A program made the translations under genes and the position numbers. A stretch of 64,000 bases of DNA from Mobula birostris (Eukaryota), in the NCBI RefSeq assembly GCF_030028105.1, contig NC_092381.1:46291474-46355473 (forward strand), given 5' to 3'. Of the stretch, positions 1 to 63,030 are shown in pieces. How positions within the stretch are numbered: position 1 is the stretch's first letter; each line of letters opens with the position of its first letter. The notes beneath the pieces are model-generated. The model saw only the letters and a list, made by a program, of their open reading frames with translations. It ran no database searches and was not told the DNA's origin.

Positions 1-599
1 CCCCATTGTAGTTGGACACAAAGAGTCGCCACTTATCAGAATGACTGAATAGCCTTGAATAAAAAGAGCAGCACAGCAGACAGCATTGCTGCTGCATCGT
101 TTCAGTGACTTGGATTTGATTCTAACCTCAAGTGGTTTTCTTGGTATCCTTGGAAGTGTTTCCCCCAGGTGCTCCAATTTCTTACTATATTCTAATGAAA
201 GATTAACTGACTAACTCGTATGGGTGGGTGACAGAAGACTTGTGTGATATTGGGTCAACAACACAGAGCCAAAATGTTGACTCTTTCCAAAGATGCTGCC
301 TGACCTGCTGAGTTTTTCCATAATTTTCTGTTTTTGTTACAGACTGAAGGTGACCAGCAAAAGGACAGATGTGACACGAGGAAAGGATATGAAATAGTAA
401 ATAATTTGGAAACGAAACGCACTGACAAAGGCTGCGACTCAGGCAGTTTAAGTGCAGCATTCAACATGAAAGGAAAAACTTGCAGAGGTAAACAAGAGGT
501 GAGGGCTTAGGACTTGCTGTATTCTTCTTACAAGGCACAAGAATGGACTCAATAAGTACAGCAACATTTAAATTATTTTAGGTTTCTGTGATCCATTTA

Positions 600-2390
600 A
601 TATTAGGCACATTGGCCTTCATAAATCAGGGCACGGAGTACATAAGTTGGGGTGTTATGTTGAAGTTGTATAACACAGCGGTCCCCAACATCCGGGCCGT
701 AAAGCATGTGCTACCGGGCTGCGAGGAAACCTTTCCTCATTCTCTGTCACGGCCACTGTTGAGCCATTACTCACGCGAGGTCATTACCCGCGCGTCATCT
801 ATGTCAGTACAGGAAGACGATCAACTCCTCGAGCTTGCAAATGACAGCGGGCTGAAAAGTATGTTTGACATAACACCTCTGCCGGCATTCTGGATCAAAG
901 TCAAGGCTAAATATCCTGAGAGAGCCACGAAAGCACTGAAAACGTTGATTCCATTTCCAACATATCTCTGCAATGAATGCAACGAAAACTAAATTGCAGA
1001 ATAGACTGGACATAAGGAACCCCCTTCGAGTATCGCTGTCTCCCATCACCCCTTGAAAGGACCATGTTGTTGCAGGGAAACAAGTATTCAGCCCAGGGCT
1101 CCCACTAATTCAGTGATTTTGGTGTGTTGCAATGATTTTATATGTTCATACGGGGAAAATATGTGCTGTGTGTTTAACATCCAAACGTTACTTAAAATGT
1201 AATGATGCTATTGACTTATAAGTGACTTATATAACCATATAACAATTACAGCATGGAAACAGGCCATCTCGACCCTTCTAGTCCGTGCCGAATGCTACTC
1301 TCACCTAGTCCCACCGACCTGCACTCAGCCCATAACCCTCCATTCCTTTCCTGTCCATACACCTATCCAATTTTTCTTTAAATGATAATATCGAACCTGC
1401 CTTTACCACTTCTACTGGAAGTTCGTTCAACACTTACTTCATGCTCCCGTCCTCCCCTGGTAATTGACTTATCACTATATTCATGTGAGGAATATATGCG
1501 CTGTGTATTTAATATTAAATTTGTTAGATAAACCCTTTTAGAAACAAAATTGAGTGTATTAGCCACTTATCACCTACATTACGGTCATGGTTAACAGCCC
1601 CCCCCCCCCGAACAGAAACGGCAAAAACGATTTGTAGAAAAAAATCGGCAGGTCACGAGCACATGCGCAAGTCACGCATGCGTACTAGTGACCGTGCAAG
1701 GCTTCATGGTCATTGTAGTCATCCTCGGGGTAAACACAACGTATTTGACTGCTACTCTTGTCCGTTGGCAACCCATCCGCGCCCCCCCCCCCCCCGGGGT
1801 CGGCCGGTCCGCCAGTATATTGTCAATATTAAACCGGTCTGCAGTGCAAAAAAGGTTGGGGACCCCTGGTATAAGACATTGGTACATTGGTGAGGCTGAA
1901 TTTGAAGTATTGTCTGGAGTTCTGGTCACCTACCTAAAGGAAATATATCAATAAGCTTGGAAGAATGCAGAGAAAATTTATTTAGATGTAGCCGGGATTT
2001 GAAGACCTGAGTTATAGGGAGGGAATGAATAGGTTAGGAATTCACTGGAGTGACGGGAGATTTGACAGAGGTATACAAACTTATGGGGGGTATAGATGGG
2101 TTAAGGAGATGCAGGCTTTTTCCCTGACACTGGTTGAGACTAGGTCATAGGTCGATGAAGAAAGGTGAATAATTTAAGGGGTACCTGAGAGGAACTTCTT
2201 CACTCTGAGGGTGGTGCGACTGTGAAATGAGCTGCCAGTGGAAGTGGTGAACGTGGGTTCAATTGAAACATTTGAGAAGTTTGATAAGAGGGATATGGAG
2301 GGCAATGATGTGACTGGACAGAAAGACAAGTTAATATGAACTAGACGGGTCAAGGGGCCTGTTTCTGTGCTGTCGTGCTCTATGACTCCA
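600..2390 (+). mobile_element. CR1 LINE 3' fragment, split by the hAT element
   Basis: ttggccttcataaatcagggc...gttgtataa|gacattggt...gagtattg continues across the hAT; CR1-type 3' end ggggcctgtttctgtgctgt. Confidence 0.7.
676..1868 (+). mobile_element. hAT (Charlie/Buster-like) internally deleted DNA transposon
   Basis: TIRs CAGCGGTCCCCAAC / GTTGGGGACCCCTG; 8-bp TSD GTATAACA/GTATAAGA; residual dimerization-domain peptide FWIKVKAKYPERATKALKTLIPFPTYLC; nested CR1 3' end at about 1235-1440 (minus). Confidence 0.88.
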
Positions 2391-2399
2391 TGTACATAC

Positions 2400-2507
2400 C
2401 TTGTCATCCTCATCCTCATCTTCACTTGTGTCTACATCATCCATATCTTCCTCCAGTGCACTGACTCGTGTATCCAGCATCTCTGCTTCTTCCAACACAT
2501 AACGTTT
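2400..2507 (-). CDS. PRPF38A: PRPF38A coding exon 5 (gene continues beyond the window; RS-domain exons not present)
   Basis: Acceptor tctag|AAA; KRYVLEEAEMLDTRVSALEEDMDDVDTSEDEDEDDK; donor AAG|GTATGT; 108 nt. Confidence 0.95.
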
Positions 2508-3962
2508 CTAGATGATCAGATTCACAGCAATCATTACAATTAATACACAATAATTTTTTTAGCTGTACAATTTGTAACACATACAACAGGTGAGTCAAAT
2601 GCATTTAAGATTTAATATAATTTGGTTAAGAGTTTCACTTATTAAAAGATTCATCATTCACAAAGAAATCAAAATTAAGTTGGATATTAATCTCACCTCA
2701 TTATCAAAAAGATGTAGAAGCTTTAAAGATGATGCAAAGGAGATTTCCTAAGATGCTGTCTAGGTTAGAGAAAGTGTCTTCTGAAGAAAAGCGGAGTGAG
2801 CCAAGTCTTTTCTGTTTGGGATAGAGGAGGATGAGAGGCAACTTGATAGAGGTGTATAAGATTGAGTGGACAGCCAGCACCTTTTTGCCAGGATGGCAAT
2901 GGCTAATACCAGAAGACATCTGTTTGAGGTGAGTGGAGGAGAGTTTGGGGAGATACAAGAGGAAGGTTTTTTAAAAAATATATACAGAGAGCGTGGTGAA
3001 TGTGTGGAGTGCACTGCTGGGGTTGGTAGTAGAGGAAGGCACAATAAGAACATTTAAAAGACTCATAGACAGGCACATGGTTGGAAAAAAAAGGAAGGTT
3101 ATCAGCTGTCTAGGAGGGAAGAGCCAGACTGATCATGAAATATGATTAGATAGATCAGCACAAAATTGTGCGATGGACTGCTCTACGTTCATTTCACACT
3201 GTTTAAAAACTGATCTGAAATAAAGACACGAGAATTGACCATATTTTGAACATTTACCAAAAACATCAAATTTCTCCTGTAATGTATTAGATACAGAAAG
3301 AAATCATATGTATTTTGTCACCAGCTTGATACCAGGATAGGGAGAGGATACAAGGTCAGAAACTCAGCTCAGCATGGAACAGGAGGCTTGGGTTTTAGAA
3401 TGGTTTCATCCATTCCAAGAGTGCGGAGTTTGTCATGGGGTCAAAAGCACAATGCAAGTGATTAAATCTGCAAATGAACCAGTTAAAAAGGCCAAGTTCA
3501 TCTTAGCAGAAATCAAAGATGGAATGTAAATTCTAACTGAATTTATCAGGCCAAGGAGAACCAGTTTTGGTTTTAAGGGAAAAAAATGGTTCACTACCCT
3601 CCAGTCCACACTACTGTAATAGGAGTCCCAATCTGTAAAATGATGTGACATCTAAGTGTTTTCTCCTTTGCTTGAAAGTACTGACTCTTAGGTGAGCTTG
3701 GTTCCATGTGTTTTACAGCCATAATAGCCGCACACACACCCCATCCCTTTATGTGGGAGTAGTGAGAGAAAATGGTGACATGCTATTGAATCAAAAATGG
3801 CTGCTGGGATCATTCCAAGCCCATTCCTCATCTCAGCTGATCCGTAGCTTTTCAGTAAGATTGTGAACTTGGATGGAAGGGCTTGTGGGTGAAGAGAACA
3901 GTAAAACTTTTCTTGTCTTCAGTTAAATACTGTTCAATGCAACAGAATAAAATCAGTTGTAC

Positions 3963-5783: not shown

Positions 5784-7308
5784 CTAAGTAGCAAAAAGAA
5801 ATTTGTTACAATGTCGTCACAGCACTGAACAACTCTGTAAAGTTGAACACAGAAGTTATTGAGAAACATTTTACACTGAACCTTTTTGCCTTATGGAAGC
5901 ACTAGACCTAATCCAGTAATTGCATATAACATGTAAAAAAAAAATCAAATATAGGAAATCTGAAACAAAAGCAGAAAATGTTAAAAATCTGTAACTTTTG
6001 ACCTGAGACATCACCTGTTTCTCTTTCCTTAATACAATTGTTACCTGATCTGCTGAATATTTTAAAGTAAGAAAAACTGAAGAATTGAATGTGCAGAAGA
6101 ACCTAACATTTGCAATTGATCTGAAAATCTATTTGGCTCTTTTGAGTTTCCCAAATATTCAGTCAATTTATTACAACACACAAATGAAACAATTTTGATA
6201 CAAAATGTAAGCTTCTAGAAACTACATGCACTAGTTACTGTACAAAATAGTGAACTTAAGAAACAGGTGTAAAATACATGGGATGAGCTGCAAGTTGCAA
6301 AGCAGTAATTCTGCAAGAACAGAAGTAGAGTAAGGCAGAGGAGGAGTACGAGATGACAACAATAAAGTAAAACACCTTTCCAAAAAGATCAGAAAGCAAG
6401 AACCAGAATATTACTACACAAAATTTGACACTTTGCTGAGTGGATATTTTAGGAGAATGACCAAAAACTTGGTAAAAACTTTTGAGGAAGGAGAGGTAGA
6501 AAATCAAGGGTATCGACGCAGGGACTTCCTTAACACAGGCCCTTGGTAGCTGAAGAGTCAATTGTCATTGGTGAATGGATTAAATTTAGAGCTGACCATA
6601 CTTTGGGGGGGGGGGGAATGCTTATAATAGAGATTATAAAATGGAGATTAGCAAGGAAGGAGAGCATGAAACCACAGAAGGATTTCAAATAATCAAGTGA
6701 TGTTCTACTAGCAGCTACAGGGTCGGATAGCAATGGAGTGATGGGTGAAGGAGACTTGGTGAATGTTAGGACAAAGGCAGCTGAGCTTTGGGTAATCTCA
6801 TATCTACAACTACAAGAACAAGTTTGTGAACCCTTTGCAATTATCTGCACAAGGGTTTTCTGCATTAATTACTCATAAAATGTGGTCTAATCTTCATCTA
6901 CATCACAATAATAGACAAACAAAATCAGCCTAAACTGATAAAACACAAACAATTGCATTTTTCATGATTTTATTGAACATATTGTTTAATTATTCACAGT
7001 CCAGGCTGGGAAGAGTATATGAACTCTTGTATTTAATAACTTGTAGAACCTCCTTTAGCAGCAATAACCTCCACCAAACGTTTCCTGTAGCTACTGATCA
7101 GACTAGCTCAATGGCAGGCAGGAATTTTAGACAATTCCTCCATGCAAAACTGTTTCAGTCTATCAATATTTCCAGGATACCTTGCAAGAACAGCCCTCTT
7201 CAGGTCATGCCACAGTATCTCAATTGGGTTAAGGTCTGGACTCTGACTTGGCCATTCCAAAACACGAATTTTCTTCTTCTTAAACTAACTGTTGCTGATT
7301 TACTCTTG

Positions 7309-7465
7309 AGGAAGAGGTGCAGCCGACGTTTCAGTCCTGACGAAGGGTCTCGGCCTGAAACGTCGACTGCACCTCTTCCTAGAGATGCTGCCTGGCTTGC
7401 TGCGTTCACCAGCAACTTTGATGTGTGTTGCTTGAATTTCCAGCATCTGCAGAATTCCTGTTGTT
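7309..7465 (+). mobile_element. Short Penelope-like (PLE) insertion with inverted 5' arm, nested in Tc1
   Basis: 13-bp TSD TGATTTACTCTTG (7296-7308, 7466-7478); 26-bp inverted arm 7309-7334 vs 7355-7380; same 3' sequence as the GIY-YIG-linked copies. Confidence 0.85.
7332..7369 (+). ncRNA. Minimal type I hammerhead ribozyme motif (Penelope-associated)
   Basis: Stem I CAGTC/GACTG; core CTGACGA; stem II within AGGGTCTCGGCCT; GAAA; palindromic ACGT in place of helix III; GUC cleavage triplet ending at 7364. Confidence 0.7.
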
Positions 7466-10400
7466 TGATTTACTCTTGGTGTTTCAGATCATTGTCTTGT
7501 TGCATCATCCAATTTCTATGAAGCTTTTGGTGACTGACCACTACCTTGACATTGTCCTGGGACTATGTTCTGTGGACAGTTGAGACAAAAGTTGAACAAT
7601 TTTTGAATTCATTGTTCCTTCAACGATTGCAAGCTGTCCAGGCCCTGAGGCAGGAAAGCATCCCGAACCATGATGCTCCTTCCACCATGCTTCACAATTG
7701 GGATGAGGTTTTGATGTTGGTGTGCACTGCCCTTTTTCCTCCAAATATAGCTTCTGTTGGAAAGTTCAACTTTTATCTCAACTGTCCACAAAGCATTGTC
7801 CCAGAAGCATTGTGGAACATCCAGATGATCTTTTCCCAACTTGAGACGTGCAGTAATGCTTTTTTTGGAGAGCAGTGGTTTGCTCTGTGGTGTCCTTCCA
7901 TGAACACCATTCTTATTCAGTGTTTTCCTTATAGTGGACACATGAACAGAGACTTTAGCAAGTTCTAGAGATTTCTGCAGGACTTTTGCTGTTACCCTTG
8001 GGTTCTTTTTCACCTCCTTCAGCATTGCACACTGTGCTGTTGGTGTGATCTTTGCAGGATGCCCACTCCCAGGGAGAGTAGCAACAGTACTGAATTTTCT
8101 CCATTTGTAAACAATTTCTCTTACTGTGGACTCATGAATACTTCGGTCTTTAGAAATGCTTTTGTACCCTATGCTTCATACAACTCTACTAAGGTCCTCT
8201 GAAAGTTGTTTTGAATGAGATATGGTGTACGTAAACAGATCTTTCTTGAGAAGAGCAAGCTGTGTCAGCAACCTGACTTTGTGTGCCATTTTTATAAGGC
8301 AGGGTACCTTTACAACCCACATCTCCATTCTCAACTGATTGACTGGAACGCCTGACTTGAAACAGCTTTTGTAGAAGGCATCAACCCAGAGGTTCACATA
8401 CCTTTTTTAACCTAGACCCTGAATGATTAAACAATGTGTTCAATAAAGACCTTAAAAGTACAATTGTTAGTGTGTTTTCAGATTAGGCAGATTGTGTTTA
8501 TCTATTATTGTGACTTAGCTAAAGATCAGACCACATTTTATGAGTAATTAATGCAGAAAACCAGGTAATTGCAAAGGGTGCACAAACTTCTTCTTGCAAC
8601 TGTATATAAGGCCAGTCTAATATTCACCAATTTGGAAATCATATTTCCAAAACGCATAAGGTCTAAAAGTAAGAAACCAAAAACAGGTGTGCGCAGGCAG
8701 AGGTAGACTAGGAGAAGGTTATGGAACTGGCAGTAACTAGTCTTATTAATCAGAATTTACTTCAGGAGCAAATACAACGGCAAAACAGCAAACAAGGTAA
8801 TTCAATTTCAGACAAACATCAGAGAGCAGAACAGAATCAGTGATTAGAGAATAAATTTCGTGAGAAGAAGCAAAAACAAGTTTTGGCCTTCCCAAAGCCA
8901 GAGGTAACCTCTGTTCACTGCATCATCTTAAGCAGTGTGAAAAAAAGATATAGAATGGACTAAGATTCAGTCAAAGGACCTGCGGAAAAGACCCAACATC
9001 TTTATTCATGTAGTGTGATTGAGCAAACTGAACTATAATAACAGATGTAATCATGACCCGCAATCCTTGCAATGGAAGGGCAAATGACAGTGACAAAGAT
9101 ATGAGGGAAAACAGTTAGCAGCATATATTGATGTACATACAAGAGATAAAATGAGAGCCTGAGAGATCAAGACCAAACAAGAACAAAAAAATTAACCACA
9201 TTAAAGTAATTTAAAACTCCCTAACACCAATAATGGTGCAAAGATCATGACAGAGACACTGTAGGTATGAATATGGAAAGCAATGGATTTGAGAGATTTG
9301 GAATGTCACGGCCTATTCCAACACTGGTGCAAAGCCACTAACATGCCTTACCCTTTCAAGACTCATTGCATTTCTGAGACCTAAATGAAAGATTGTTTAT
9401 GCAACTTTAGTAGTACGTCACCCTCAACTTGACTCCACTCTGTCAAATTCTCCCAATCTTCACCTTCACAAAGAGCATCTCACACAATTTTATTGAATAG
9501 CACAGTTGAAATGCTTGCTCTTTCCTAACTTTCTGACTGCGTCCGATATGAGTTTGTACCAAACAACTTCTATGCCGTTACTATTTCAAAACTATGTATA
9601 AAGGTGTGGAGTTATGCAGCAGAGATGCAGGCCCTCCAGCCCAATTTAACCATGCCAATCCAGATATCAACCTAACCTAGTCTCATCTTCCTGAATTTGG
9701 CCCACATTTATATAAACCTTCCCTATTGATGAAACTGCCCAATACGAAATAAATGTTGTAATTGGTCCTGTCTCTACCACTTCCTCTGGCCTTTTGCTCC
9801 AGAAAGCCACCACCCTCCATGTGGAAAAACTTCTCCTCAGGTCCCCTTTGAATATTTCACAATCAATGACTCTAGTTTAAGACTTGCCATTTCTGGAAGA
9901 AAGAAAAACACGACTATCCATCCATCTTATCTATGCTCCTCACTATTTCATAAAACTCAAAATGTCACCATTCAGTCTGGTTCAATCCCAAGAAACAAGT
10001 TCCAGCCTCTCCTTATAACTCAAGCACTCCAGTCCCACCAACATCTTTGTGAATCTGTTGCCCAATGTCCTGTGCAGCTATAACATGACACTCCAACCCT
10101 TGTACTCCAACGAAGACAAGCATACCAAACGCCTTCTTCACCACCCTTTCTTACCGTGTTACCATTTTCAATGAATTATATAATTACACCCCATAGGCCT
10201 CTCTGTACTACAACACGTTTCAGGGTCTTGTCAGTTACTGTTCAAGACCTTCATTGGTATAACTCCCCAAGATCCACCATTTCGCACTTATCTGAGTTAA
10301 ATCTCAATTGCATTCCCTGGCCCGTTTTCCCAATTGTTCTTTGCTGTACACATCGCCTGGTCAAGGATTCCCAATGCTCATAAACCGGACCAAACTTTTA

Positions 10401-10530: not shown

Positions 10531-10705
10531 TCACAAAATGCCGGAGTAAGTCAGCAGGTCAGGAAGCATCTACGGAAACGAACAGAATAGATCTCGGCCC
10601 GAAATGGGATTAGGTGTTTATTTCCATAGCTGCTCTCTGACCTGCTAAGTTGCTCCAGCATTTTGAATGGATTTTCAGCATCTGCAGACTTTCTCGAATT
10701 TATGA
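10531..10705 (+). mobile_element. Short PLE-derived insertion with inverted arm
   Basis: TSD TCAGCTGTAATCTT/TCAACTGTAATCTT (10517-10530, 10706-10719); family motif ctgacctgctaagttgctccagcattttg...cagcatctgcag. Confidence 0.75.
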
Positions 10706-10876: not shown

Positions 10877-11200
10877 TGCAATCCCAGAAGCCCCCGCGAG
10901 GTGGTGACCTCCCAAACAGCGTTCACAGCGCCTCCCTCCGTCTAGGCGGTCTAATTTACGCGGACCCCTCTCCCGGCGAACAATGTGACTGCAGCGCCTC
11001 CCAGCGACCAGGCGGCCTCACGTACACGGAACGCCCCTCTCCCGGCGAACAATGTGACTGCAGCGCCTCCCAGCGACCAGGCGGTCCAAAGTACACAAAC
11101 TGGGAAAACGCAACGACTCCGATTCAGTGGGATCTCAGGATGAATGAAAACAGTGCGGGGATCGCAGACACTTTCATAGATAGGCAAGGCGCATACTGAT
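10877..11200. promoter_or_regulatory. PRPF38A CpG-rich promoter/5'UTR region
   Basis: High CpG density directly upstream of the ATG; ZNF143-like and CTCF-like motifs; 69-bp tandem duplication. Confidence 0.65.
10965..11084. repeat. Tandem duplication, 69-bp period, 51-bp identical core
   Basis: cccctctcccggcgaacaatgtgactgcagcgcctcccagcgaccaggcgg at 10965-11015 and 11034-11084; partial degenerate copy at 10926-10949. Confidence 0.95.
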
Positions 11201-11432
11201 GCACTAAAAGGTATGTATTTTCAGGTTGTTTAATGTCATTTCCTTTACACAAGAGTAAGGACAGCGAAATGATTGTTATTCCGGAACTGATGCAGCACAA
11301 AAAAACATAAAAGATAAAGAACACAATAATAATATTTTTTTAAAAACAGTAAAAGGAGGTGGAGCACTCCTTCAGCCTGATGCAACGCTTACACGTGCTC
11401 CCATTGGGTTGCCAGGAGTCTTGTTTCCTCTT

Positions 11433-13870
11433 AACCCAGCACCCAAGTGCCCTCATTACCATCTCGGGTGACTTCAACCATGTCACCATGGCTAGAACAC
11501 TGCCCAACTTCACGCAGTATGTGAGCTGTACAACCAGAGGGGAGAGGACTCTGGATTTGCTGTGCGCTAACGTTAAGGATGCATACAGCTCCTCTCCCCT
11601 CCGCCCTTTGGGAAGGTCAGACCACAACCTGGTGCATCTAAAACCCTGCTACGTGCCTCTGGTGAAGAGTAAACCTGCAACCTCGAGGACAGTGAGGAAA
11701 TGGTCGGAGGAGGCTTATGAGGTGCTCCAGGGTTGTTTTGAGGTGACAGACTGGCAGACACTCTGTGTGCCACATGGAGAGGATATTGATGGGCTCACAG
11801 AATGCATCACTGATTACATCAACTTCTGTGTGGACTGCAATGTTCTGACAAGAACTGCCCTTTGTTATTCAAATAATAAGCCATGGGTAAAAGAGGACAT
11901 TAAGGACATCCTGAATGCTAAAAAGAGGGCATTTAGAGATGGAAATAGGGAGGAGCTGAGGGCAATACAGAGGGACCTGAAAGCCAGGATCATGGAGGCT
12001 AAAGATAGGTACAGGAGGAAGCTTGAGTGGAAACTCCAGCAGAACAACATGAGAGAGGTCTGGAGGGGGATGAGGACCATCACTGGGTTCCAGCAAACTA
12101 GCAACAGAGGAGCTGAAGGCCGTGTGGACAGGGCCAATGAACTTAACCTGTTCTTTAACAGGTTTGACAGTGTGGCCCCAGCCCATCCCACACATGAGCC
12201 ATCTGTTGTCGGCCCCCAACCAAAACGTATTCCACTCTCCCCTTCTACTCCTCCTCACAGTCCCCTACCCTGCTTTCATGACTATACCCCTTGCCCACAC
12301 AAAACCACCACGGTGGGCTTCACAGCTGAACAGGTGAGAAGACAGCTGAAACGTCTCAACCCAAGCAAGGCTACAGGACCGGATAGTGTCAGTACCAGGG
12401 TGCTCAAAGCCTGTGCCCCTCAGCTATGTGGAGTACTTCGCCATGTATTCAACCTGAGCCTGAGGCTCCGGAGGGTTCCTGTACTGTGGAAGACGTCCTG
12501 CCTTGTCCCTGTGCCGAAGATGCCGCGCCCCAGCGGCCTCAATGACTACAGACCGGTGGCATTGACCTCCCACATCATGAAGACCCGGGAGAGACTTGTT
12601 CTGGAGCTGCTCTGGCCTATGGTCAGGCCACACTTAGATCCCCTTCAGTTCGCCTACCAGCCCCGACTAGGAGTTGAGGATGCCATTGTCTACCTGCTGA
12701 ACCGTGTCTACACCCACCTGGACAAGCCAGCGAGCACTGTGAGGGTCATGTTTTTTGACTTTTCCAGTGTGTTCAACACCATACGCCCTGCTCTGCTGGG
12801 GGAGAAGCTGACAGTGATGCAGGTGGATGCTTCCCTCGTCTCATGGATTCTTGATTACCTGACTGGCAGACCACAGTACGTGTGCTTGCAACACTGTGCG
12901 TCCGACAGAGTGATCAGCAGCACTGGGGCTCCACAGGGGACTGTCTTGTATCCCTTTCTCTTCACCATTTACAGCTCGGACTTCAACTACTGCACAGAGT
13001 CTTGTCATCTTCAGAAGTTTTCTGATGACTCTGCCATAGTTGGATGCATCAGCAAGGGAGACGAGGCTGAGTACAGGGCTACGGTAGGAAACTTTGTTAC
13101 ATAGTGTGAGCAGAATTATCTGCAGCTTAATGTGAAAAAGACTAAGGAGCTGGTGGTAGACCTGAGGAGGGCTAAGGCACTGGTGACCCCTGTTTCCATC
13201 CAGGGGGTAAGTGTGGACATGGTGGAGGATTACAAATACCTGGGGATACGAATTGACAATAAACTGGACTGGTCAAAGAATACTGAGGCTGTCTACAAGA
13301 AGGGTCAGAGCCGTCTCTATTTCCTGAGGAGACTGAGGTCCTTTAACATCTGCCAGACGACGCTGAGGATGTTCTACGAGTCTGTGGTGGCCAGTGCGAT
13401 CATGTTTGCTGTTGTGTGCTGGGGCAGCGGGCTGAGGGTAGCAGACACCAACAGAATCAACAAACTCATTCGTGAGGCCAGTGATGTTGTGGGGATGGAA
13501 CTGGACTCTCTGACGGTGGTGTTGTAAAGAGGATGCTGTCCAAGTTGCATGCCATCTTGGACAATGTCTCCCATCCACTACATAATGGACTGGTTGGGCA
13601 CAGGAGTACATTCAGCCAGAGACTCAGTCCACCAAGATGCAACACAGAGCATCATAGGAAGTCATTCCTGCCTGTGGCCATCAAACTTTACAACTCCTCC
13701 CTTGGAGGGTCAGACACCCTAAGCCAATAGGCTGGTCCTGGACTTATTTCCTGGCATAATTTATGTATTACTATTTAACTATTTATGGTTTTATTACTAT
13801 TTAATTATTTATGGTGCAACTGTAATGAAAACCAATTTCCCCCGGGATCAGTACAGTATGACTATGACTA
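11433..13870 (+). mobile_element. Rex1/Babar-type LINE, 5'-truncated in the APE domain, young
   Basis: ORF with SGDFNH and SDHNLV (APE), YRPVALTS, FDFSSVFNTI, GAPQGTVL, KFSDD (RT); only in-frame stops at 13102 and 13525; tail (ATGACT)n. Confidence 0.92.
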
Positions 13871-18278: not shown

Positions 18279-18489
18279 CCACACACACAAAATGCTGGAG
18301 GGACTCAGCAGGCCAGGCAGCGTCAATGGAAAAGAGTGCAGTCGACGTTTTGGGCCCAGATCCTTCAGCAGCCCGAAACTTTGACTGTACTCTTTTCCAT
18401 AGATGCTGCCTGTCCTGCTGAGTTCCTCCAGCATTTTGTGTGTGTTGCTTTGATTTCCAGCATCTGCAGATTTTCTTTTGATTGTGATT
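18279..18489 (+). mobile_element. Short PLE-derived palindromic insertion
   Basis: TSD GAACTTTCAAG/GAATTTTCAAG (18268-18278, 18490-18500); long inverted arms; degenerate hammerhead core on the minus arm. Confidence 0.8.
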
Positions 18490-29736: not shown

Positions 29737-31771
29737 TAGAAATGGCGAAGTGAAATTTTTGATGAAATTTTTTTTCATTAAATTTAAAAAAATACTGGAA
29801 GTATTCAGGTCAGGCATAAGCTGTGGCGAGAACAATAAAGTTAATGTTTTGGTTTCAGGGTTGTAGGGTAATACTGCGTGGATACAGGCCTTTCAGCCCA
29901 ACTTGTCTATTCTGATCCAGCTACCTACCTGAGGTAGGACAACTTGCCTGAAGTTGTTTCAGATCCCTCTAATCGTTCATATCCTAAACGTTATTGATCC
30001 ATAACAAAACATATTCAACCTGAAACATTTTTCTTTTCACTAATGCTGCCTGACCTGCAGAGTATTTACAACATACTGCTGCCATTAAAAATTAGTCCCC
30101 TTTGATCTTTAAACTGTTTACCTGAAGATTCTCCTGCTCCTTCAAGTTGATTTTCCCATTTCCATGATAGCAATCTTGGCAGAGAAGGAATTGGCTAAAT
30201 TACACTCACCATTTCATCTCTGAAATTTTGGACACATATTGATATATATTCATGTTTGTTTATGGAATGCATGGTGCATGATCAGTTGATAACTTCTCAA
30301 TTTATTAAGCTTCTGTTATAATTAATAAGCCTATTAAATTTGCCTTGTTTGTTTTCTCTGAAAGTTGCTGTGTGAAATTTCCGAGTCTTTGAGTAGCTGC
30401 AAGAGTGTACCAGCAACTAAGTTGCTTAGGATTTCAGCTGAAGGTTTATTGATAATATCAGCAGTGACAGCACCACCAGAAGTTTGTAGTGTCCAAATCC
30501 TCTGTTATGCTTGAATAATGCGCACACCATCTACTGATCATGTTGTGTCTGATCCTGAATTACCTTCTGAGATGCCAGTTGTGCCCGGTATTAATAGCGT
30601 GGCCCATCTATGAGAGAAGGCAGTCCTTCTGACACAAGCAGGCCTGAAGAATTTTCAACAACAGCAGCACCGTGGTGCGACTGTACCAACACATAGGTTG
30701 TTAATTTGGGTTATAAGATTAGCTTTATTTGTCACATGTACATCAAAACATACAATGAAATAAACCGCACCAGCGACCAACATAGTCCGAAATGTGCTGG
30801 AAGCAGCCTGCCAGTGTTGCCATGTTTCTGGCACCCACAAGTTACTAACCTAACCTGTAAGTCTTTGGAATTGGGAAGAAACTGACACGGTCATGAGGAG
30901 AATGTACAGATTTCTTATAGACGGCGGCAGAATTGAGTGCAGGTTGTTGGCCCTGTAATAGTGTGACACTAACTGCGGCATTACTGTGCTCCCGCTTTAG
31001 GAACACAAGAGCAAGTGATAGCTGTTTTTAGAGTCTGGGAGTTACAGTGCATTTAATGGCAGAGTCAAAGTCTAGTACAACTTGGAACTAAGCCCTTTTG
31101 CTGCACAGAATCCACAGTGACCATCAAGCAAAAATTTTCACATATCCTCCACTAATCCCATTTTATTCTCCGGGTGCCCCTTATTAATTTTCCACTGACC
31201 TACTGCACATTAGAGACATTTGAAGTGGCCAGATCCTCATATCTGTGGGGTGTGGAAGGAAACGGGAATGTATGGACAAAGCTTGTGTGGTCACAGGCAG
31301 AATACAGGGACTCCATAACAGCACAGGAACCCAGCTCAGAGACGTTTGTGAGGCAGCAGTTTTGCCGTGCTGCCCTATCCCCACCTAGCCTTACCTCGAC
31401 ATTTAGGATGACTTGCTTCCACTCCATTTGGCATTTCTGAAGAGACCGCGAAAGGAGGTGTAGGCTCTTCCACGGATTGGGTAGATGGCGGGGCTAAGTA
31501 GGTCGCTGGTGAAGGAGTCTGCCCTCTCTGCCCCTAATGTAGAGTCTCCATGTTTTCCCAGCATGGATTTGAGGTTCCCGATTCTCCTTTTCATCTCTGC
31601 AGTCATCGACAAGATTCTGAGTTCGGGGGGGGCGGGGGAGGGTTACTTTTTTCCCCCCAAGAAAAATCAGTCTTTCCTCCGACACTTGGCGATGGCTTCC
31701 TGTGGTGGAGCTTAGAATAAGCATACCTGTGTTAGGAATCTGACGTCAAGCCTGCAACAGATGTGGCCTCC

Positions 31772-32230
31772 TATCACAAACAAGAGAAAATCTGCAGATG
31801 CTAGAAATCCAAGCAGCACACACAAACAAAATGCTAGAGGAACTCAACAGGCCAGGCAGCCTCTATGGAAAAGAGTACAGTCGATGTTTCAGGCCAAAAC
31901 CCCTCAGCAGGACTGCAGAAAAATGCTGAGGTTTAGACTTTAAAGGTGAGGGAGGGGAGAGAGAAAAGCACCAGGTAATGGGTGAAGCTTAGAGGGATGA
32001 AATAAAGAGCTGGGAAGTTGATTGGTGAAAGAGACAGAAGGCCATGGAAGAAAGAAAAGGGGGGAGGAGCACCAGAGGGAGGTGATGGACGAGCAAGGAG
32101 ATAAGTTGAGAGAGAGAGAAGAGGATGGGAAATGGTGAGGGGGGTGGGTTGGAGGCATTACCGGAAGTCTGAGAGATCGATGTTCATGCCATCAGGTTGG
32201 AGGCTACCCAAACGGAATATAAGGTGTGGT
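31772..32230 (-). mobile_element. Penelope-like element 3' end (GIY-YIG C-terminus plus 3' repeat)
   Basis: Minus frame HLIFRLGSLQPDGMNIDLSDFR*; degenerate hammerhead near 31877-31915; TSD ACAGATGTGGCC/ACAGACGTGGCC (31757, 32231); sits within an old RTE fragment. Confidence 0.8.
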
Positions 32231-40254: not shown

Positions 40255-40880
40255 ATGGGGAATGGGGAATGGAGAAGGGAGAGGAGAAATTATTGGAAGT
40301 TAGATAAATCGATGATCATACCATCAGGTTGGGGGCTACGCAACTGGAACATGAGGCATTGCTGCGCCTCAGGCAGTATATGGGGCAATGCCCCTCTCGC
40401 CCTCTCCCTTCTGTCATTCCCAATTCTGGTTCCCCCCCCCCCCAATTCCTTTTCCTCACCTGCTCCACACTTTCCTCTGGTGCCCCTCCTCCTTCCATTT
40501 CTTCCATAGTCCACTGTCCTGTCCTATCCAGTTCCTCCTTCTCCTGCTCTTCACCTCTTTAACCTATCACCTCCCAGCTTCTTTCTTCATTCCCTCCATC
40601 ACCCAACCATCCATCTTCCTCCTCACCTGGTTTCACCCATCACCTGCCAGCTTGTACTCCTTTCCCTCCCCCCCGCCACCCTTCTTAGTCTGGTTTCTTC
40701 CCCCTTCTTTCCAGTCCTGATGAACAATCTCAGCCTGAAGTGTTGACTTTTTCAGTTAAACATTTCAGTGAAATGCTGACATGTTTCTTCCTGTCCGTTG
40801 ATGTTGTCTGACTTGCTGAGTTCCTCTGGCATTTTATGTGTGTTGCTCAAGATTTCCAGCATCTGCAGAATCTCTTGCGT
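40255..40880 (+). mobile_element. Penelope-like insertion: inverted GIY-YIG C-terminal piece (40255-40375, minus) plus 3' end (40385-40880, plus)
   Basis: Minus frame QQCLMFQLRSPQPDGMIIDLSNFQ*; plus strand has degenerate hammerhead cagtcCTGATGA...GAAG and the family 3' end. Confidence 0.7.
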
Positions 40881-41210
40881 TTATTATTCCTGTGAAGGCA
40901 AGTCGAAGTAAAATCCATATTGCTGTTGAAGGTCAGGGTATCCGTTATTAGTTGGTGGCAATAAACTGCTCTACTATTCCCTATGTCGGGAAAGGAAGAG
41001 AATCTAATTTATAAAACTTCAGTAAGGAATCCTGTGGAAAATGCAAAATAAAAGACAAGAAATGTGCATTAACCACAGATCTAGATTAGGAACTGAGATT
41101 TTCAATTCATGCTTAATTTTATTCAGTGTAGTCATTCTGTTTATGGATCAGGAAATAAGAATAATGAATTTTAAGCTTCTGTTAGTCAATTGACGTTTGA
41201 ACTTTCACAG

Positions 41211-41744: not shown

Positions 41745-41894
41745 TCACAAGCAAGAGAAAATCTGAAGTGCTGGAAATCAGAGCAACACACACAAAATGC
41801 TGGGAACGCCGAAGGGCTGAAACGTCAACTGTACTTTTTTCCATAGATGCTACCGGGCCTGCTGAGTTCCTCCAGCATTTTTGTGTGTGTTGCC
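41745..41894 (-). mobile_element. Short PLE-derived palindromic insertion
   Basis: TSD TCAATATCTACCAA/TCATTATCTACCAA (41731-41744, 41895-41908); inverted arms gcaacacacacaaaatgctgg / ccagcatttttgtgtgtgttgc. Confidence 0.8.
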
Positions 41895-55074: not shown

Positions 55075-57500
55075 TCATAATACTTTGGTTCAGTATTCAC
55101 TACGGAAATTGACAATTGTGAACTGAAAAGCTTGCGCATGTAGATATTAAGGAAAAGGATGTGCTGGAGCTTTTGGAAAGCATCAAGTTGGATAAGTCAC
55201 TGGGACCGGATGGGATGTACCCCAGGCTACTGTGGGAGGCGAGGAAGGAGATTGCTGAGCCTCTGGCAATAATCTTTGCATCATCAATGGGGATGGGAGA
55301 GGTTGCGGAGGATTGGAGGGTTGCAGATGTTGTTCCCTTATTAAAGAAAGGGAGTAGAGGTAGCCCAGGAAATTATAGGCCGGTGAGTCTTACTTCAGTG
55401 GTTGGTAAGTTGATGGAGAAGATCCTGAGAGGCAGGATTTATGAACATTTAGAGAGGCAAAGTATGATTAGGAATAGTCAGCATAGCTTTGTCAAAGGTG
55501 GGTTGTGCCTTACAAGCCTGATTGATTTTTTTGAGGATGTGACTAAACACATTGATGAAGGTAGAGCAGTAGATGTCATGTATATGGATTTCAGCAAGGC
55601 ATTTGATAAGGTACCCCATGCAAGGCTAATTGAGAAAGTAAAGAGGCATGGGATCCAAGGGGACATTGCTTTGTGGATCCTGAACTGGCTTGCCCACAGA
55701 AGGCAAAGAGTGGTTCTAGACGGGTCATATTCTGCGTGGAGGTCGGTGACCAGTGGTGTGCCTCAGGGATCTGTTCTGGGACCCCTTCTCTTTGTGATTT
55801 TTATAAATGACCTGGATGAGGAAGTGGAGGGATGGGTTAGTAAATTTGCTGATGACACAAAGGTTGGGGGTGTTGTGGATAGTGTGGAGGGCTGTCAGAG
55901 GTTACAGCGGGACATTGATAGGATGCAAAATTGGATTGAGAAGCGGCAGATGGAGTTCAACCCAGATAAGTGAGGTTTTTCATTTTGGTGGAATATAGTA
56001 TTATTGGTGAGACTCTTGGCAGTGTGGAGGATCAGGGGGATTTGGGGTTGAGTCCATAGGACACTCAAAGCTGCCGTGCAGGTTGACTCTGTGGTTAAGG
56101 CTCAAGGTGCATTGGCCTTCAAAAATCATCGGGTTGAGTTTAAGAGCCGAGAGGTAATGCTGCAGCTCTAGGACCCTAGGAGATTTACAAGGATGTTGCC
56201 TGAATTGGGGAGCATGCCTTATGAGAATAGGTTGAGTGAACGCGGCCTTTTCTCCTTAGAGTGACAGAGGATGAGAAGTGACCAGACAGAGGTGTGCAAG
56301 ATGATGAGAGGCATTGATCGTGTGGATAGTCACAGGCTTTTTCCCAGGGCTGGAATGGCTAGCATGAGAGGGCACAGTTTTAAGGTGCTTGAAAGTAGGT
56401 ACTTCCAAGAAGAGATGTCGGGGTTAAGTTTTTTATGCAGAGAATGGTAAGTGTATGGAATGGCCAGTGACGGTGGTGGAGACGAATATGAAAGGGTCTT
56501 CTAAGATACTCCTGGATCGTCGTGGTGGTGGCTATCATTTGAGGTCGAGGATGATGGTCTTCGTTCCGTTGATCTATTTATGGGCTCTCAAGTGGCTTAT
56601 GAGTCCAATCTTGGCTTTGAAAGTTCTTCCGCATTCAGGACAGGTAGTTCCTGATGGCAGATCGGGCTTTGGTTGTTGCTGCCTCTCTTTCCATTTTCTT
56701 CTAATTCTGCACATCTGTTGGCTTCGAAAGTTGCTGTTCCTTCTCGGATGATGGCTTGCCAGAGTTTCCTGTCCTTGGCATTGGCAACAATTTCCCAATT
56801 GTTGATGTCGATTTTGGCTTTTAAGACGTCTTTGAATCTCTTCTGTTGTCTGCCTCTTTTACGTTTGCCTTCTTTAAGCTGGGAGTAGAAGATCTGTTTT
56901 GGGAGACGTTCATCTTCCATCCGAACAACATGACTGCTCCATCTTAGTTGGTTCTTGATGACATAGGCTTCAATGCTCGTTGTTTTTGTTTCATTTAGCA
57001 CACTGACGTTGGTTCTTCTATCTTCCCAGCTGATATTTAAGATGTTTCGAAGGCAGTATTGATGGAACTTTTCAAGTGCCTTCAGATGTCGTCGGTATGT
57101 TGTCTGGGTTTCTGAAGCATACAGGAGCATTGGGATTACCACTGCTTTATACACTAACATTTTGGTGTTTGTTTGGATGTCACGATCATGAAAGACTCTT
57201 GTTCGGAGACATCCAAAAGCTGTTCCAGCACATTTAAGATGATGTTGGATCTCATCATTAAGGTCGACATTGGAGGAGAGGTGACTTTCAAGATATGGAG
57301 AGTGGTGGACGTTTTCCAGGGTTGTTTCGCCAAGCTGAATTGATGGTTCTATCCGATTTGTCTCAGTTGGTGACAAATGGCGCTTAGAAAATTAGAGGGC
57401 TATGGGTAACCCTAGGTAATTTCCAAGGTAAGGACATGTTGGGCACAGCTTTGTGGGCTGCAGGGCCGGTATTGTGCTGTAGGTTTTCTTTGTCTCTATA
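55075..57500 (+). mobile_element. CR1 (HER1-like) LINE 3' half, interrupted by RTE
   Basis: 270-aa ORF with NYRPVSLTS, DFSKAFDKV, GVPQGSVLGP, KFADD; CR1 3' end resumes at about 57377. Confidence 0.9.
56517..57376 (-). mobile_element. RTE-clade LINE 3' fragment
   Basis: YKAVVIPMLLYASET...ILNISWEDRRTN...QLRWSSHVVRM...LPKQIFY; frameshifted zinc finger CPECGRTFKAKIGLISHLRAH. Confidence 0.88.
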
Positions 57501-57760
57501 ACTTTATATACCTCTATTAAATTGTCTCTTAGCCTCCTTTACTCCAAGGTAAACAAATGTAGCCTCGCCAATGATCTCCTCATTAGGGCTCTAATTCAGG
57601 TAACATCCTGGTGAACCTGCTCGACTTTGTCCAGCTTTCCTATGATACAGTAATTGTACTGCACATATTAAACTAATGTTTTGGGAAGCTGCAACTCAAC
57701 ACTAACTTTTATAATCAATGCCCTGGGGTTTGAAGGAAAACACGCCTTATGTCTTCTCTA

Positions 57761-57899
57761 GCAACACACATTAAAGTTGCTGGTGAACGCAGCAGGCCAG
57801 GCAGCACCTCTTCCTAGAGATGCTGCCTGGCCTGCTGCGTTCACCAGCAACTTTAATGTGTGTTGCTTGAATTTCCAGCATCTGCAGAATTCCTGTTGT
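57761..57899 (+). mobile_element. Short PLE-derived insertion with a perfect 46-bp hairpin
   Basis: Perfect 14-bp TSD TTATGTCTTCTCTA (57747-57760, 57900-57913); arms 57761-57806 and 57821-57866. Confidence 0.88.
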
Positions 57900-59384: not shown

Positions 59385-62300
59385 TAATATTCTTGCGGGC
59401 AGGTTTGTTAGAACCGTTGGGGAGGGTTTAAATTAATTTGGCAGAGGGGTGAGGACCGGAGTGAAGGGACTCAGGATAGGAAGGATGGTTAAAAAAAAAG
59501 AGTAAAGATCACGTGCAGTCAGACTGTCGGGAAGGGCAGGCAGCTGCTGGGACTTAGTTGCAGCCAACATGCTGAGTATCAAAACATCAGGAATGCAGAA
59601 TCAGAGAGGATAGCAAATGCGGTACTCAAGGTGTTGTATCTAAATGTGCGTAGTATAAGAAATAAGGTGGATGATCTTGTTTCACTATTACGGATTTGCC
59701 AGGTATGATGTTGTGGCCATCACTGAATCGTCGCTGAAGATTGGTTGTAGTTGGGAGCTGAATGTCCAAGGTAACACGTTATATCGGAGGGATAGGAAGG
59801 TAGGCAGAGGGGGTGGTGAGGCTCTACTGGTAAAGAATGGCATCAAATCAGTAGAAAGATGTGACTTAGGATCCGAAGATGTTGAATCCTTGTGGGTTGA
59901 GTTAAGAAACTGCAAGGGTAAAGGACATTGATGGCAGTTGTATACAGGCCTCCCAGTAGTGGTTGGGAAGTGGGCCACAGATTACAACAGGAAATAGAAA
60001 AGGCGTGTCAAAAGGGGACGGTCCTTGGAGATTTCAACATGCAGCTCAATTGGGAAAATCAGGTTGGAAATGGATCTCAAGAGAGTGAGTTTGTTGAATG
60101 CCTACAAGATGGCTTTTTAGAGCAGTTTGACATTGAGCCAACTAGGGGATCAGCTAGCTCAAGGTAAAAGAGCCCTTGGGAGCCTGTGATCACAATAAGA
60201 TTGAGTTCAACTTGAAATTTGATGGGGAGAAAGTAAAGTCTGATGTAGCAGTGTTTCAGTGTAGTAAGGGAAATTACAGTGGTACGAGACAGGAGTTGGT
60301 GGCCAAAGTAAATAAGAAGGAGCTGCTGGCAGGGATGTCAACAGAGCAGCAATGGCTTGCATTCTGGGAAAAATGAGGAAGATGCAGGACATATGTATTC
60401 CAAAAATGAAGAAATACTGAAATGGTAAAATGTACAACCATGGCTGACATGGGAAGTCAAAGCTATTTGACGTGGGTGCAGTTACTGTTACAAGAGAGAA
60501 GGTGCTGAGAAAACTAAAAGACCTGAAGTTACATAAGTCACCCGGACCAGATGAACTGCACCCTGAGGTTCTTAAAGAGGTAGCATTAGAGATTGTGGTG
60601 ACATTATAAATGATCTTTCAAAAATCATTGGACTGCCAGAGAATGGGAAAATTCCAAATGTTACTCCACTCTTTAAGAAAGGAAGGAGGCAGCAGAAAGG
60701 AAATTATAGACCAGTTAGCCTGATCTCAGTGGTTAGGAAGATGTTAGAGTCAGATGTTAAGGATGAGGTGATGGAGTACTTGGTGACACAGGACAAGATA
60801 GTACAAAGTCAGCATGGTTTCCTTCAGGGAAAATCCTGCCTGATGAACCTGCTGGAATTCTCTGAGGAGATTACAAGGAGGATAGATAAAGGGGATGCAG
60901 TGAACATTGTATATTTGGACTTTCAGAAGGCCTTTGACAAGGTGCCACACATGAGGCTGCTTACCAAGTTAAGAGCCCATGGTATTACAGGGAAGTTACT
61001 AACATGGTTAGAGCATTGGCTGGTTGGTAGGAGGCAGCAAGTGTGAATAAAAAGATCCTTTTCTGGTTGGCTGCCAGTGACTTAGTGGCATTCCGCAGGG
61101 GTCGGTGTTGGGACCACTTCTTTTTATGCTGTATATAAATGATTTAGATGATGGAATTGGTGGCTTTGTTGCCAAGTTTGCAGATGATATGAAGATTGGT
61201 GGGGGGCAGGTAGTTTTGAGGAAATAGGTAGGATACAGAATGACATAGTCTGATTAGGAGAATGGGCAAGAAAGTGGCAAATGAAATACAATGTTGGAAA
61301 ATGCATGGTCATTCACTTTGGTAGTAGAAATAAATATGCGGACTATATTCTAAACAGGGAGAAAATCCAGGAATCCCGAGGTGCAGAGGGACGTGGGAGT
61401 TCTTGTGCAGAACACCCTAAAGGTTAACTTGCAGGTAGAGTCAGTGGTGAAGAAGGCAAATGCCATGTTAGCATTAACTTCAAGATGTCTAGAATACAAG
61501 AGCAGGGATGTGATGCTGAGGATTTATAAGGCACTGGTGAGGCCTCACCTTGAGTATCTAGATTAAAAGTAACGTTAGCAAATTTGCAGATGACACAAAG
61601 CTGGGTGACAGTGTGAAATGTGAGGAGGATGTTATGAGAATGCAGGGTGACTTGGACGGGTTGGGTGAGTGGGGAGATGCATGGCAGATGCAGTTTAATG
61701 TGCATAAATGTGGGGTTAGCCACTTTGGTGGCAAGAACAGGAAGGGAGATTACTATTTGAATGGTGTCAAGTTAGGAAAAAGGGAAGTACAATGAGATCT
61801 GGGTGTCCTTGTTCATCAGTCACTGAAAGTAAGCATGCAGGTACAGTAGGCAGTGAAGAAAGCTAATGGCATGTTGGCCTTCATAACAAGGGGAGTTGAG
61901 TATAGGAGCAAAGAGGTCTTTCTGCAGTTGTACAGGCCCTGGTGAGACCACACCTGGAGTATTGTGTGCATTTTTGGTCTCCAAACTTGAGGAAGGACAT
62001 TCTTGCTATTGAGGGAGTGCAGCGTAGGTTCACAAGGTTAATTCCCGGGATGGTGGGACTGTCACATGTTGAAAGATTGGAGCGACTGGTCTTGTATACA
62101 CTGGAATTTAGAAGGATGGGAGGGGATCTGATTGAAACATATAAGATTATGAAGGGATTGGACATGCTGGAGGCAGGAAACATGTTCCCGATGTTGGGGG
62201 AGTCCAGAACCAGAGGCCACAGATTAAGAATAAGGGGTAGGCCATTTAGAACGGAGTTGAGGAAAAACGTTTTCACCCAGAGGGTTGTGGATCTGTGGAA

Positions 62301-63030
62301 TGCTCTGCCTCAGAAGGCAGTGGAGGCCAATTCTCTGGATGCTTTCAAGAAAAAGTTAGATGGAGCTCTTAAAGATAGTGGAGTCAAGGGATATGGGGAA
62401 AGGCAGAAACGGGGTACCGATTGTGGATGATCAGCCAAGATCACAGTGAATGGTGGTGCTGGCTCGAAGGGCTGAATGGCCTACTCCTACACCTATTGTC
62501 TATTGTGAACAGTTTTGGGCCCCTCATCTTAGAAAAGCTGTGCTGGCATTGGAGAGGGTCCAGAGGAGGTTCACAAGGAATGAAAGGGTTATCATATGAG
62601 GAACATTTAATGGCTCTGGGTCTGTACTCGCTGGAATTCAGAAGGATGGGAGGATCTCACTGAAACCTTTCGAATGTTGTAAGGCATAGACAGAGTAGAT
62701 GTGGAAAAGATGTTTCCCCTGGAGGGAGAGTCTAGGACAAGAGGGCACAGCCTCAGGATAGAGGGACACCCTTTCAAAACAGAGGTGCAGAGAAATTTCT
62801 TTAGCCAAAGGGTGGTGAATTTGTGGAATTTGTTGCCACATGCAGCTGTGGAGGCCAGGTCGTTGGGAATATTTAAGGCAGAGATTGAAAGGTTCTTGAT
62901 TGAACATGGCATCAAGGGTTACGGGGAGCTGGGTTTGAGGAGGAGGGTTAAAAAGGATCAGCTATGATTGGTGGAACAGACTCGATGGGCGGGTGGCCTA
63001 ATTCTGCTCCAATGTCTTCTTGTCTTATGA
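59385..63030 (+). mobile_element. CR1 LINE (ORF1 end and ORF2), degenerate, in CC2D1B intron
   Basis: APE (AITESS, VYRPP, GDFN, DHN), RT (DFQKAFDKV, KFADD) and CR1 3' end. Confidence 0.88.
61558..62500 (+). mobile_element. Second CR1 LINE 3' fragment nested in the previous CR1
   Basis: Host gagtat|tgtgaacag is split; insert runs from KFADD to its own 3' end ...ctattgtc. Confidence 0.8.

Follow-up and report, generated by a model that had tools for sequence, protein, structure and literature searches.

The 157-bp insertion at positions 7309-7465 of the window (the whole 64-kb stretch of DNA analysed) most likely represents a stub, dead on arrival, of an endonuclease-positive Penelope-like element (PLE), which probably belongs to the Neptune clade. 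It combines a 133-nt 3' end carrying a minimal hammerhead motif with a head-to-head 26-nt inverted copy and a 13-bp target site duplication (TSD), and the motif is predicted to be buried and to stay uncleaved at this locus. The insertion represents an ordinary example of a known PLE insertion form, while for the family itself we found no earlier description of a hammerhead in the literature; repeat libraries and further supplementary files could hold one.

On the forward strand, a complete minimal type I hammerhead motif of the PLE pLTR type can be read from the sequence at 7332..7369, and we confirm the hammerhead observation at this position as real. The motif is laid out as follows:

7332-7336/7365-7369, + strand: stem I, 5 bp, 4 bp of which certainly derive from the forward arm
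7337-7343, + strand: core CUGACGA
7344, + strand: unpaired extra A between core and stem II, i.e., between positions 9 and 10.1
7345-7348/7353-7356, + strand: stem II, 4 bp, with a G-U closing pair
7357-7360, + strand: GAAA
7360-7363, + strand: palindrome ACGU, standing in place of helix III
7364, + strand: C17 of the GUC triplet, with the predicted cut after C7364

All core elements are present in the type I order CUGANGA, GAAA and UH. Helix III is absent and positions 15.2-16.2 are palindromic; stem II contains two G-U pairs among its 4 bp and closes with G7345-U7356 instead of the conserved G10.1-C11.1. The original prediction had parsed the same letters into stem I, a CUGANGA/GAAA core, stem II, a GUC triplet and ACGU for helix III, and this parse matches 7332-7369 throughout. 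It was also right in taking this for a minimal hammerhead of the PLE type that lacks helix III, a kind presumed to act as a dimer.

A relaxed minimal-hammerhead descriptor, applied to both strands of the 64-kb window, returned one match, namely 7332-7369. Among dinucleotide-shuffled windows, 6 of 300 gave any descriptor match and 0 of 300 gave the form without helix III. Rfam reported no match at gathering score over the window, and none of the seven matches obtained up to E 10 for 7200-7600 is a hammerhead family. The best Rfam match of 7200-7600 by E-value is a microRNA-precursor model, which at 43.7 bits reaches about half of its cut-off of 88 and was set aside as a generic hairpin match.

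Within the window, CTGANGA, GAAA and ACGT(H) are kept together in only one of nine motif-spanning segments, some of which are truncated inside the motif; the majority line of six window copies keeps the motif. In the alignment of six decayed copies, 76% of the stem cells pair, compared to 14-42% in slid registers, and this pairing is equalled by 438 of 500 shuffles. Covariation of stems I and II, which had been proposed as a check, gave no signal: 0 of 9 pairs changed on both sides in this small, old sample, where the check has low power.

A hammerhead look produced by chance, or as an artefact of the hairpin, would agree with the missing Rfam score, with the nil covariation and the shuffle result, and with a folding z-score of only -1.6 for the bare 38-mer (7332-7369). 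We nevertheless consider it hardly credible, and largely refuted already, given that the same form never occurred in the 300 shuffled windows, the motif sits where PLEs carry hammerheads, and the majority line of the six copies retains it; the extra base between 9 and 10.1 and the palindromic 15.2-16.2, moreover, are both listed among the emergent features in Cervera and De la Pena (2014, PMC4209133).

The insertion is located within the transposase frame of a decayed Tc1 element, between exact 13-bp repeats:

6800..8607, - strand: decayed Tc1/mariner transposon (Pfam HTH_Tnp_Tc3_2, E 3.5e-17; translation; inverted repeats)
7296..7308, + strand: left TSD, 13 bp, exact repeat, with one target copy in insertion-free Tc1 contigs
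7466..7478, + strand: right TSD, 13 bp, exact repeat, with a blurred left edge

The terminal inverted repeats of the Tc1 element, 6800-7023 and 8391-8607, measure about 220 bp (224 bp on the left) and are 80% identical. The left edge of the right TSD is blurred because the inserted element ends in bases similar to the target sequence that directly precedes the left TSD. When random window positions were sampled, 3 of 20,000 had a repeat of this kind at the same spacing. Other Tc1 copies are represented by contigs that lack the insertion and hold a single target copy, and hence serve as the empty site. The prediction of a short insertion with a TSD of its own therefore holds at 157 bp, with exact 13-bp repeats and empty-site contigs. 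Positions 7289-7295 resemble the last 7-8 bases of the element (7457-7465), such that the true duplication may reach about 20 bp, with microhomology-guided priming. The Tc1 element at 6800-8607 also holds an internal 41-bp inverted duplication (7557-7597/7764-7804).

The insertion is composed of two arms, one of which ends in a tail:

7309..7334, - strand: inverted arm, 26 nt, reverse complement of 7355-7380 (25 of 26 identical)
7333..7465, + strand: forward arm, 133 nt, consisting of pLTR and tail, the 5'-truncated 3' end of a PLE family with high copy number
7432..7465, + strand: tail, about 33 bp, recognized by the paired arm ends in other copies

At their junction the arms overlap by 2-3 nt (7332/7333-7334). 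Position 7333 is the first of the forward arm, which leaves the outer C of stem I (C7332) to the inverted arm; the equivalent position in contigs of the family is T or C. The original prediction had noted neither the inverted arm, nor the place of C7332 in it, nor the G-U closure of stem II. Both arms run through the cleavage site 7364/7365. Relative to the usual short end, the start of the inverted arm is set back by about 50 nt into the element, which is not the case in four other two-armed copies and counts against the reading as a stub.

Contigs from 4 of the 24 runs listed were aligned to 7130-7650; one of these runs was guessed to contain RNA, and the other three are DNA-type or unlabelled. 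Summed contig depth, which is a relative figure and not a copy number, amounts to 0.35-9.9 million over 7346-7453 in all four runs, does not exceed 136,000 on the Tc1 flanks, and lies at 77-3,298 on the inverted arm (7310-7327). This contrast marks the forward arm as a very abundant repeat and the arm junction of 7309-7465 as something other than the common form of the family; by contig depth, the inverted arm has no place in the common sequence. Beyond the upstream edge at 7332/7333, contigs of the family continue into pyrimidine-rich sequence; past 7466/7467, the 3' end of the family, they no longer agree. In the guessed-RNA run, no listed contig spans the 7130-7650 stretch, and one contig shows a strand-switch joint 7334/7376 at a depth of 1,673, perhaps from another fold-back copy.

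BLAST with three family queries collected 12 merged loci of the PLE family in the 64-kb window, covering 2,182 bp, and none in the reversed-sequence control. Exact-pattern scans for loci of the family returned 0 in metagenome, viral and genome contig collections. The following window copies are referred to below:

57760..57899, + strand: sister insertion from the same subfamily, identical at 94 of 96 positions (98%), 13-bp TSD, inverted and forward arm
18279..18489, no strand assigned: older two-armed copy, 11-bp TSD with 1 mismatch
41745..41894, no strand assigned: older two-armed copy, 14-bp TSD with 1 mismatch, tail on the inverted arm
10531..10705, no strand assigned: older two-armed copy, 14-bp TSD with 1 mismatch
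31769..32230, - strand: longer, older copy, 12-bp TSD (1 mismatch), with ORF end, UTR, decayed hammerhead and tail
40262..40882, no strand assigned: old, long two-armed copy with a second ORF-end remnant in its inverted piece

The build of TSD, inverted arm and forward arm is shared with four of these copies (57.8, 18.3, 41.8 and 10.6 kb). TSDs of 11-14 bp were found at six of the seven PLE copies tested, and none at 40262..40882. In focal coordinates, the two arms of each of the four other copies with this build stop at different places, one at about 7425-7432 and its partner at about 7459-7464. These end points lie about 33 nt apart in every case, which equals the 30-40-bp tail described for PLEs (PMC8557442, PMC3846280, PMC11167929); the 157-bp insertion carries the long end, i.e., the tail end. 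The forward arm of the sister insertion begins at the equivalent of 7369 and lacks the hammerhead core. Altogether, the forward arms of the five short two-armed copies start at 7333, 7341, 7348, 7353 and 7369, none of them at the cut site. Arm starts within the hammerhead span may reflect RT stalling at a structure or a template start in this region.

Apart from this family and the Tc1 element, the window contains the following features:

11353-13104, + strand: LINE-type element with a 583-codon open frame, RVT_1 domain (E 4e-16)
10926-11096: tandem repeat of 2.5 copies with a GC-rich unit of 69 bp, shortly before the LINE-type frame
55122-55973, 56597-57391, 60576-61046 and 61906-62430, strand not given: further RT-like open frames

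Folding predictions bear on the state of the motif at its locus. A hairpin of -51.7 kcal/mol (z -10.1) is predicted between the two arms, and the predicted pair probabilities of stems I and II fall from 0.62-1.0 without the inverted arm to 0.0 with it. The hammerhead had been called intact, which is true of its letters but not of its predicted fold. The isolated 38-mer is able to form stems I and II (pair probabilities 0.87-1.0) and also prefers an off-pathway helix of 7339-7342 with 7361-7364 (probability 0.98). For two whole insertions, the double-hammerhead dimer reaches -97.5 versus -157.6 for the best fold, a gap of about 60 kcal/mol; for two forward arms, the figures are -66.3 and -85.3, leaving a gap of about 19 kcal/mol. 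These are equilibrium predictions, and tertiary contacts, protein and co-transcriptional folding lie outside the model. Since the motif is predicted to be covered by the folded inverted arm, no cleavage is expected at the 7309-7465 locus, and the hammerhead in its 157-bp insertion context is predicted not to self-cleave. The fold-back of 7309-7380 constitutes a 72-nt hairpin of pre-miRNA size; if transcribed, such stubs could yield double-stranded RNA.

It is very improbable that the motif is an active ribozyme at the locus, cutting a host or read-through transcript after exapted use or while being transcribed. All core letters are present, in the sole such copy among nine window segments, and family sequence occurs in contigs of the guessed-RNA run. 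However, any young copy is expected to keep its core intact, and transcription of the + strand reaches the inverted arm ahead of the motif, whose 3' half this arm sequesters (pair probabilities 0.0). Helix III is absent, the window offers no second intact motif as a partner, G-U is the closing pair of stem II, and the isolated 38-mer favours the off-pathway helix. Furthermore, a single minimal PLE hammerhead was inactive in vitro in the account of PMC4209133, and the host sequence is a dead Tc1.

Among the contig variants listed, and with a seeding that favours copies close to 7309-7465, CpG-type changes at 7352, 7361, 7362 and 7365 account for 6-11% of depth in the three DNA-type runs, and those at CpG 7403/7404 outside the motif for 9-25%; in the guessed-RNA run they reach 2-6% inside the motif and 5-8% at 7403/7404. 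Dispersed copies thus lose the motif at a rate close to, though somewhat below, that of the CpG outside it; the motif is dispensable in stubs, as the sister at 57.8 kb lacks it. The position equal to 7356 (11.1) is C in three of nine window segments. Among the variants of at least 5% listed for the four runs, none is T>C at 7356, with seed bias possible, which suggests that the G-U closing pair is a fixed state of the young subfamily. In run X11, 27% of depth reads A at 7368, a subfamily change that would break a stem I pair unless compensated.

The longer copy at 32230-31769 (- strand) connects the forward arm to a coding sequence. It is identical to the forward arm at 107 of 132 positions (~80%) and contains the last 23 codons and the stop of a GIY-YIG-like ORF at 32229-32158, followed by a pyrimidine-rich 3' UTR, the decayed hammerhead and the tail. 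The ORF end reads ..HLIFRLGSLQPDGMN.. and stops about 250 nt upstream of the hammerhead. In this copy, the hammerhead is thus met downstream of the ORF end in a terminal repeat. A second ORF-end remnant is located at 40355-40296, with 14 of 20 residues identical.

Aligned by eye with Fig. S2 of PMC8557442, the 23-residue ORF end matches the Neptune (and Naiad) endonuclease ends, and does not fit the Penelope/Poseidon rows of that figure. As Naiads have an N-terminal endonuclease and are described in the same source as devoid of canonical hammerheads, Neptune remains. Three database searches with the 23 residues returned no PLE protein, no Pfam family was assigned, none of three candidates scored and there was no Atlas match. 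Two matches from the representative search were dropped as unrelated repeat proteins. Since these searches produced no PLE protein, the clade call is tentative, and from its ORF end we would place the element in Neptune. Neither the window copies nor scans of contig collections revealed a full-length element. As the ORF link runs via a relative only ~80% identical, the young subfamily's own master could lack the ORF.

Two further readings concern the origin of the unit itself. The insertion had been suggested to be retrozyme-like, which is not supported: it is not tandem, neither of its ends lies at the cleavage site, and it shows the inverted-arm structure of PLEs; furthermore, its 98%-identical sister lacks the hammerhead core, and its longer relative leads into a putative PLE endonuclease C-terminus. 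None of the four TRF rows of the window is a tandem unit of the family, and the contigs hold only rare, low-depth back-joints near the motif. A unit or multimer of a hammerhead-processed circle was rejected as well, on account of the fold-back, the passage of both arms across the cut site and the sister without hammerhead.

Alternatively, the young subfamily might be a non-autonomous PLE derivative (SINE-like, or the offspring of a tandem-retrozyme monomer), mobilised in trans by a Neptune-like PLE, with a short master RNA that starts just upstream of the hammerhead; on this view, 7309-7465 would represent a nearly complete unit plus inverted arm instead of a random truncation. The forward arm does begin right at stem I (7333), and in five of five short two-armed copies it starts within the motif span. 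These copies were chosen for shortness, however, and the clustering of starts is therefore partly built in. Upstream of 7333, the contigs share their letters for about 13 nt, with a low overall agreement of 0.37-0.47, and a few contigs have head-to-tail joints near the motif at depths of 20-56. Further points in its favour are that no full-length master of the young subfamily was found in the window or the contig collections, and that the preprint 10.64898/2026.07.22.740005 derives animal retrozymes from pLTRs and reports tandem retrozymes in the sole chondrichthyan genome it sampled. On the other hand, a tandem array of the family is absent from the window, and none of the joints listed connects the 3' end to a common start. 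Arm ends are scattered with none at 7365, the sister copy carries no hammerhead, and four longer window copies match or extend 200-450 nt upstream, including UTR and ORF end. We therefore regard this derivation as unlikely. Its more specific form makes the youngest subfamily a SINE-like parasite of a Neptune PLE, with a template RNA starting at the upstream edge of the hammerhead, a fixed G-U pair and roughly 10^5 copies or more, and appears to us a minor possibility. If it were true, few ribozyme motifs in a vertebrate genome would exceed this one in abundance, and fold-back insertions would seed many pre-miRNA-sized hairpins.

For the preferred reading of a PLE fold-back stub, the course of events may be pictured as follows. 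A PLE GIY-YIG endonuclease would nick both target strands 13 nt apart, as PLE work implies, and RT would prime cDNA from each nick on the family RNA, one at the tail end and one internally. Both cDNAs would stop early, inside the hammerhead region, and be joined by microhomology. The RNA template was likely uncleaved at 7364/7365, given that both cDNAs pass this point. The hammerhead itself would work in the pLTRs of tandem master copies, processing precursor RNA, where two motifs may pair through ACGU or the element's protein may help folding. Dispersed stubs would carry the hammerhead passively and then decay.

If the stub reading is right, the insertion by itself is of small value, as one more PLE stub with the usual minimal hammerhead. 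Nonetheless, 7309-7465 provides a clean case of a fold-back PLE insertion copied from RNA uncut at the hammerhead, and the uncut template agrees with one biochemical study of a vertebrate PLE, the anole Poseidon. With 12 loci in 64 kb, the family is abundant enough to map priming and junction sites genome-wide.

With respect to known systems, animal non-LTR retrozymes are described as tandem repeats with a hammerhead per unit, mostly canonical motifs and circular RNA (Cervera and De la Pena 2020; Li et al. 2026; PMC7229834; 10.64898/2026.07.22.740005). The insertion shares with them its non-coding nature, a type I hammerhead, the relation to pLTRs and a length in their range. In contrast to them, it is a single fold-back insertion with a minimal motif, from a family that also occurs with an ORF end. 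The preprint reports PLEs across five vertebrate classes, and its supplements may include the 7309-7465 family.

The Poseidon of Anolis carolinensis is, like the present family, a vertebrate PLE with a pLTR hammerhead. Its protein nicks and extends both strands (Frangieh et al. 2024, PMC11167929), two internal RT start sites define its tail, and it mostly uses unprocessed RNA; these properties would explain both the two arms and the uncut template. According to the same source, cleavage by its hammerhead requires protein, and insertion does not depend on the hammerhead. Judging by the ORF end, the family would belong to a different clade. Furthermore, the ORF of Poseidon starts inside the hammerhead, whereas the window copies show the 3' end of an ORF only.

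5'-truncation with an adjacent inverted copy is given as typical of endonuclease-positive PLEs in PMC8557442 and PMC3846280. The insertion units of Arkhipova et al. (2013, PMC3846280) and Craig et al. (2021, PMC8557442) resemble the one studied here in TSD, 5' truncation and inverted copy, in the tail being present on one arm only, and in a longer copy having a putative C-terminal GIY-YIG end followed by 3' UTR and hammerhead. Differences are the extremely short length (157 bp), the inverted arm that begins about 50 nt inside the usual end, the TSDs of 11-14 bp in window copies as compared to 8-10 bp in the rotifer PLE examples, and a family known here from 3' parts and an ORF end, with RT not seen.

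The closest counterparts of the motif are the min-HHRs described in pLTRs of metazoan PLEs, including Xena, Poseidon and Neptune of fish (Cervera and De la Pena 2014, PMC4209133); the text covered here and two of the three supplementary files of that study name no cartilaginous fish (no shark or skate term in the files), the group to which the host probably belongs. According to its text, the single minimal motif is inactive and dimers are weakly active, and G10.1-C11.1 is highly conserved, i.e., typical but not absolute. The motif at 7332-7369 agrees with these min-HHRs in being type I with a full core, no helix III, a palindromic 15.2-16.2 and an unpaired base before stem II, as well as in a stem I of 4-5 bp, an open loop 1 and an occurrence mostly as single motifs in truncated copies. 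It departs from them in the G-U pair in place of G10.1-C11.1 and in a 4-bp stem II with two G-U pairs. By every tested feature except the G-C closing pair, 7332-7369 is a PLE minimal hammerhead.
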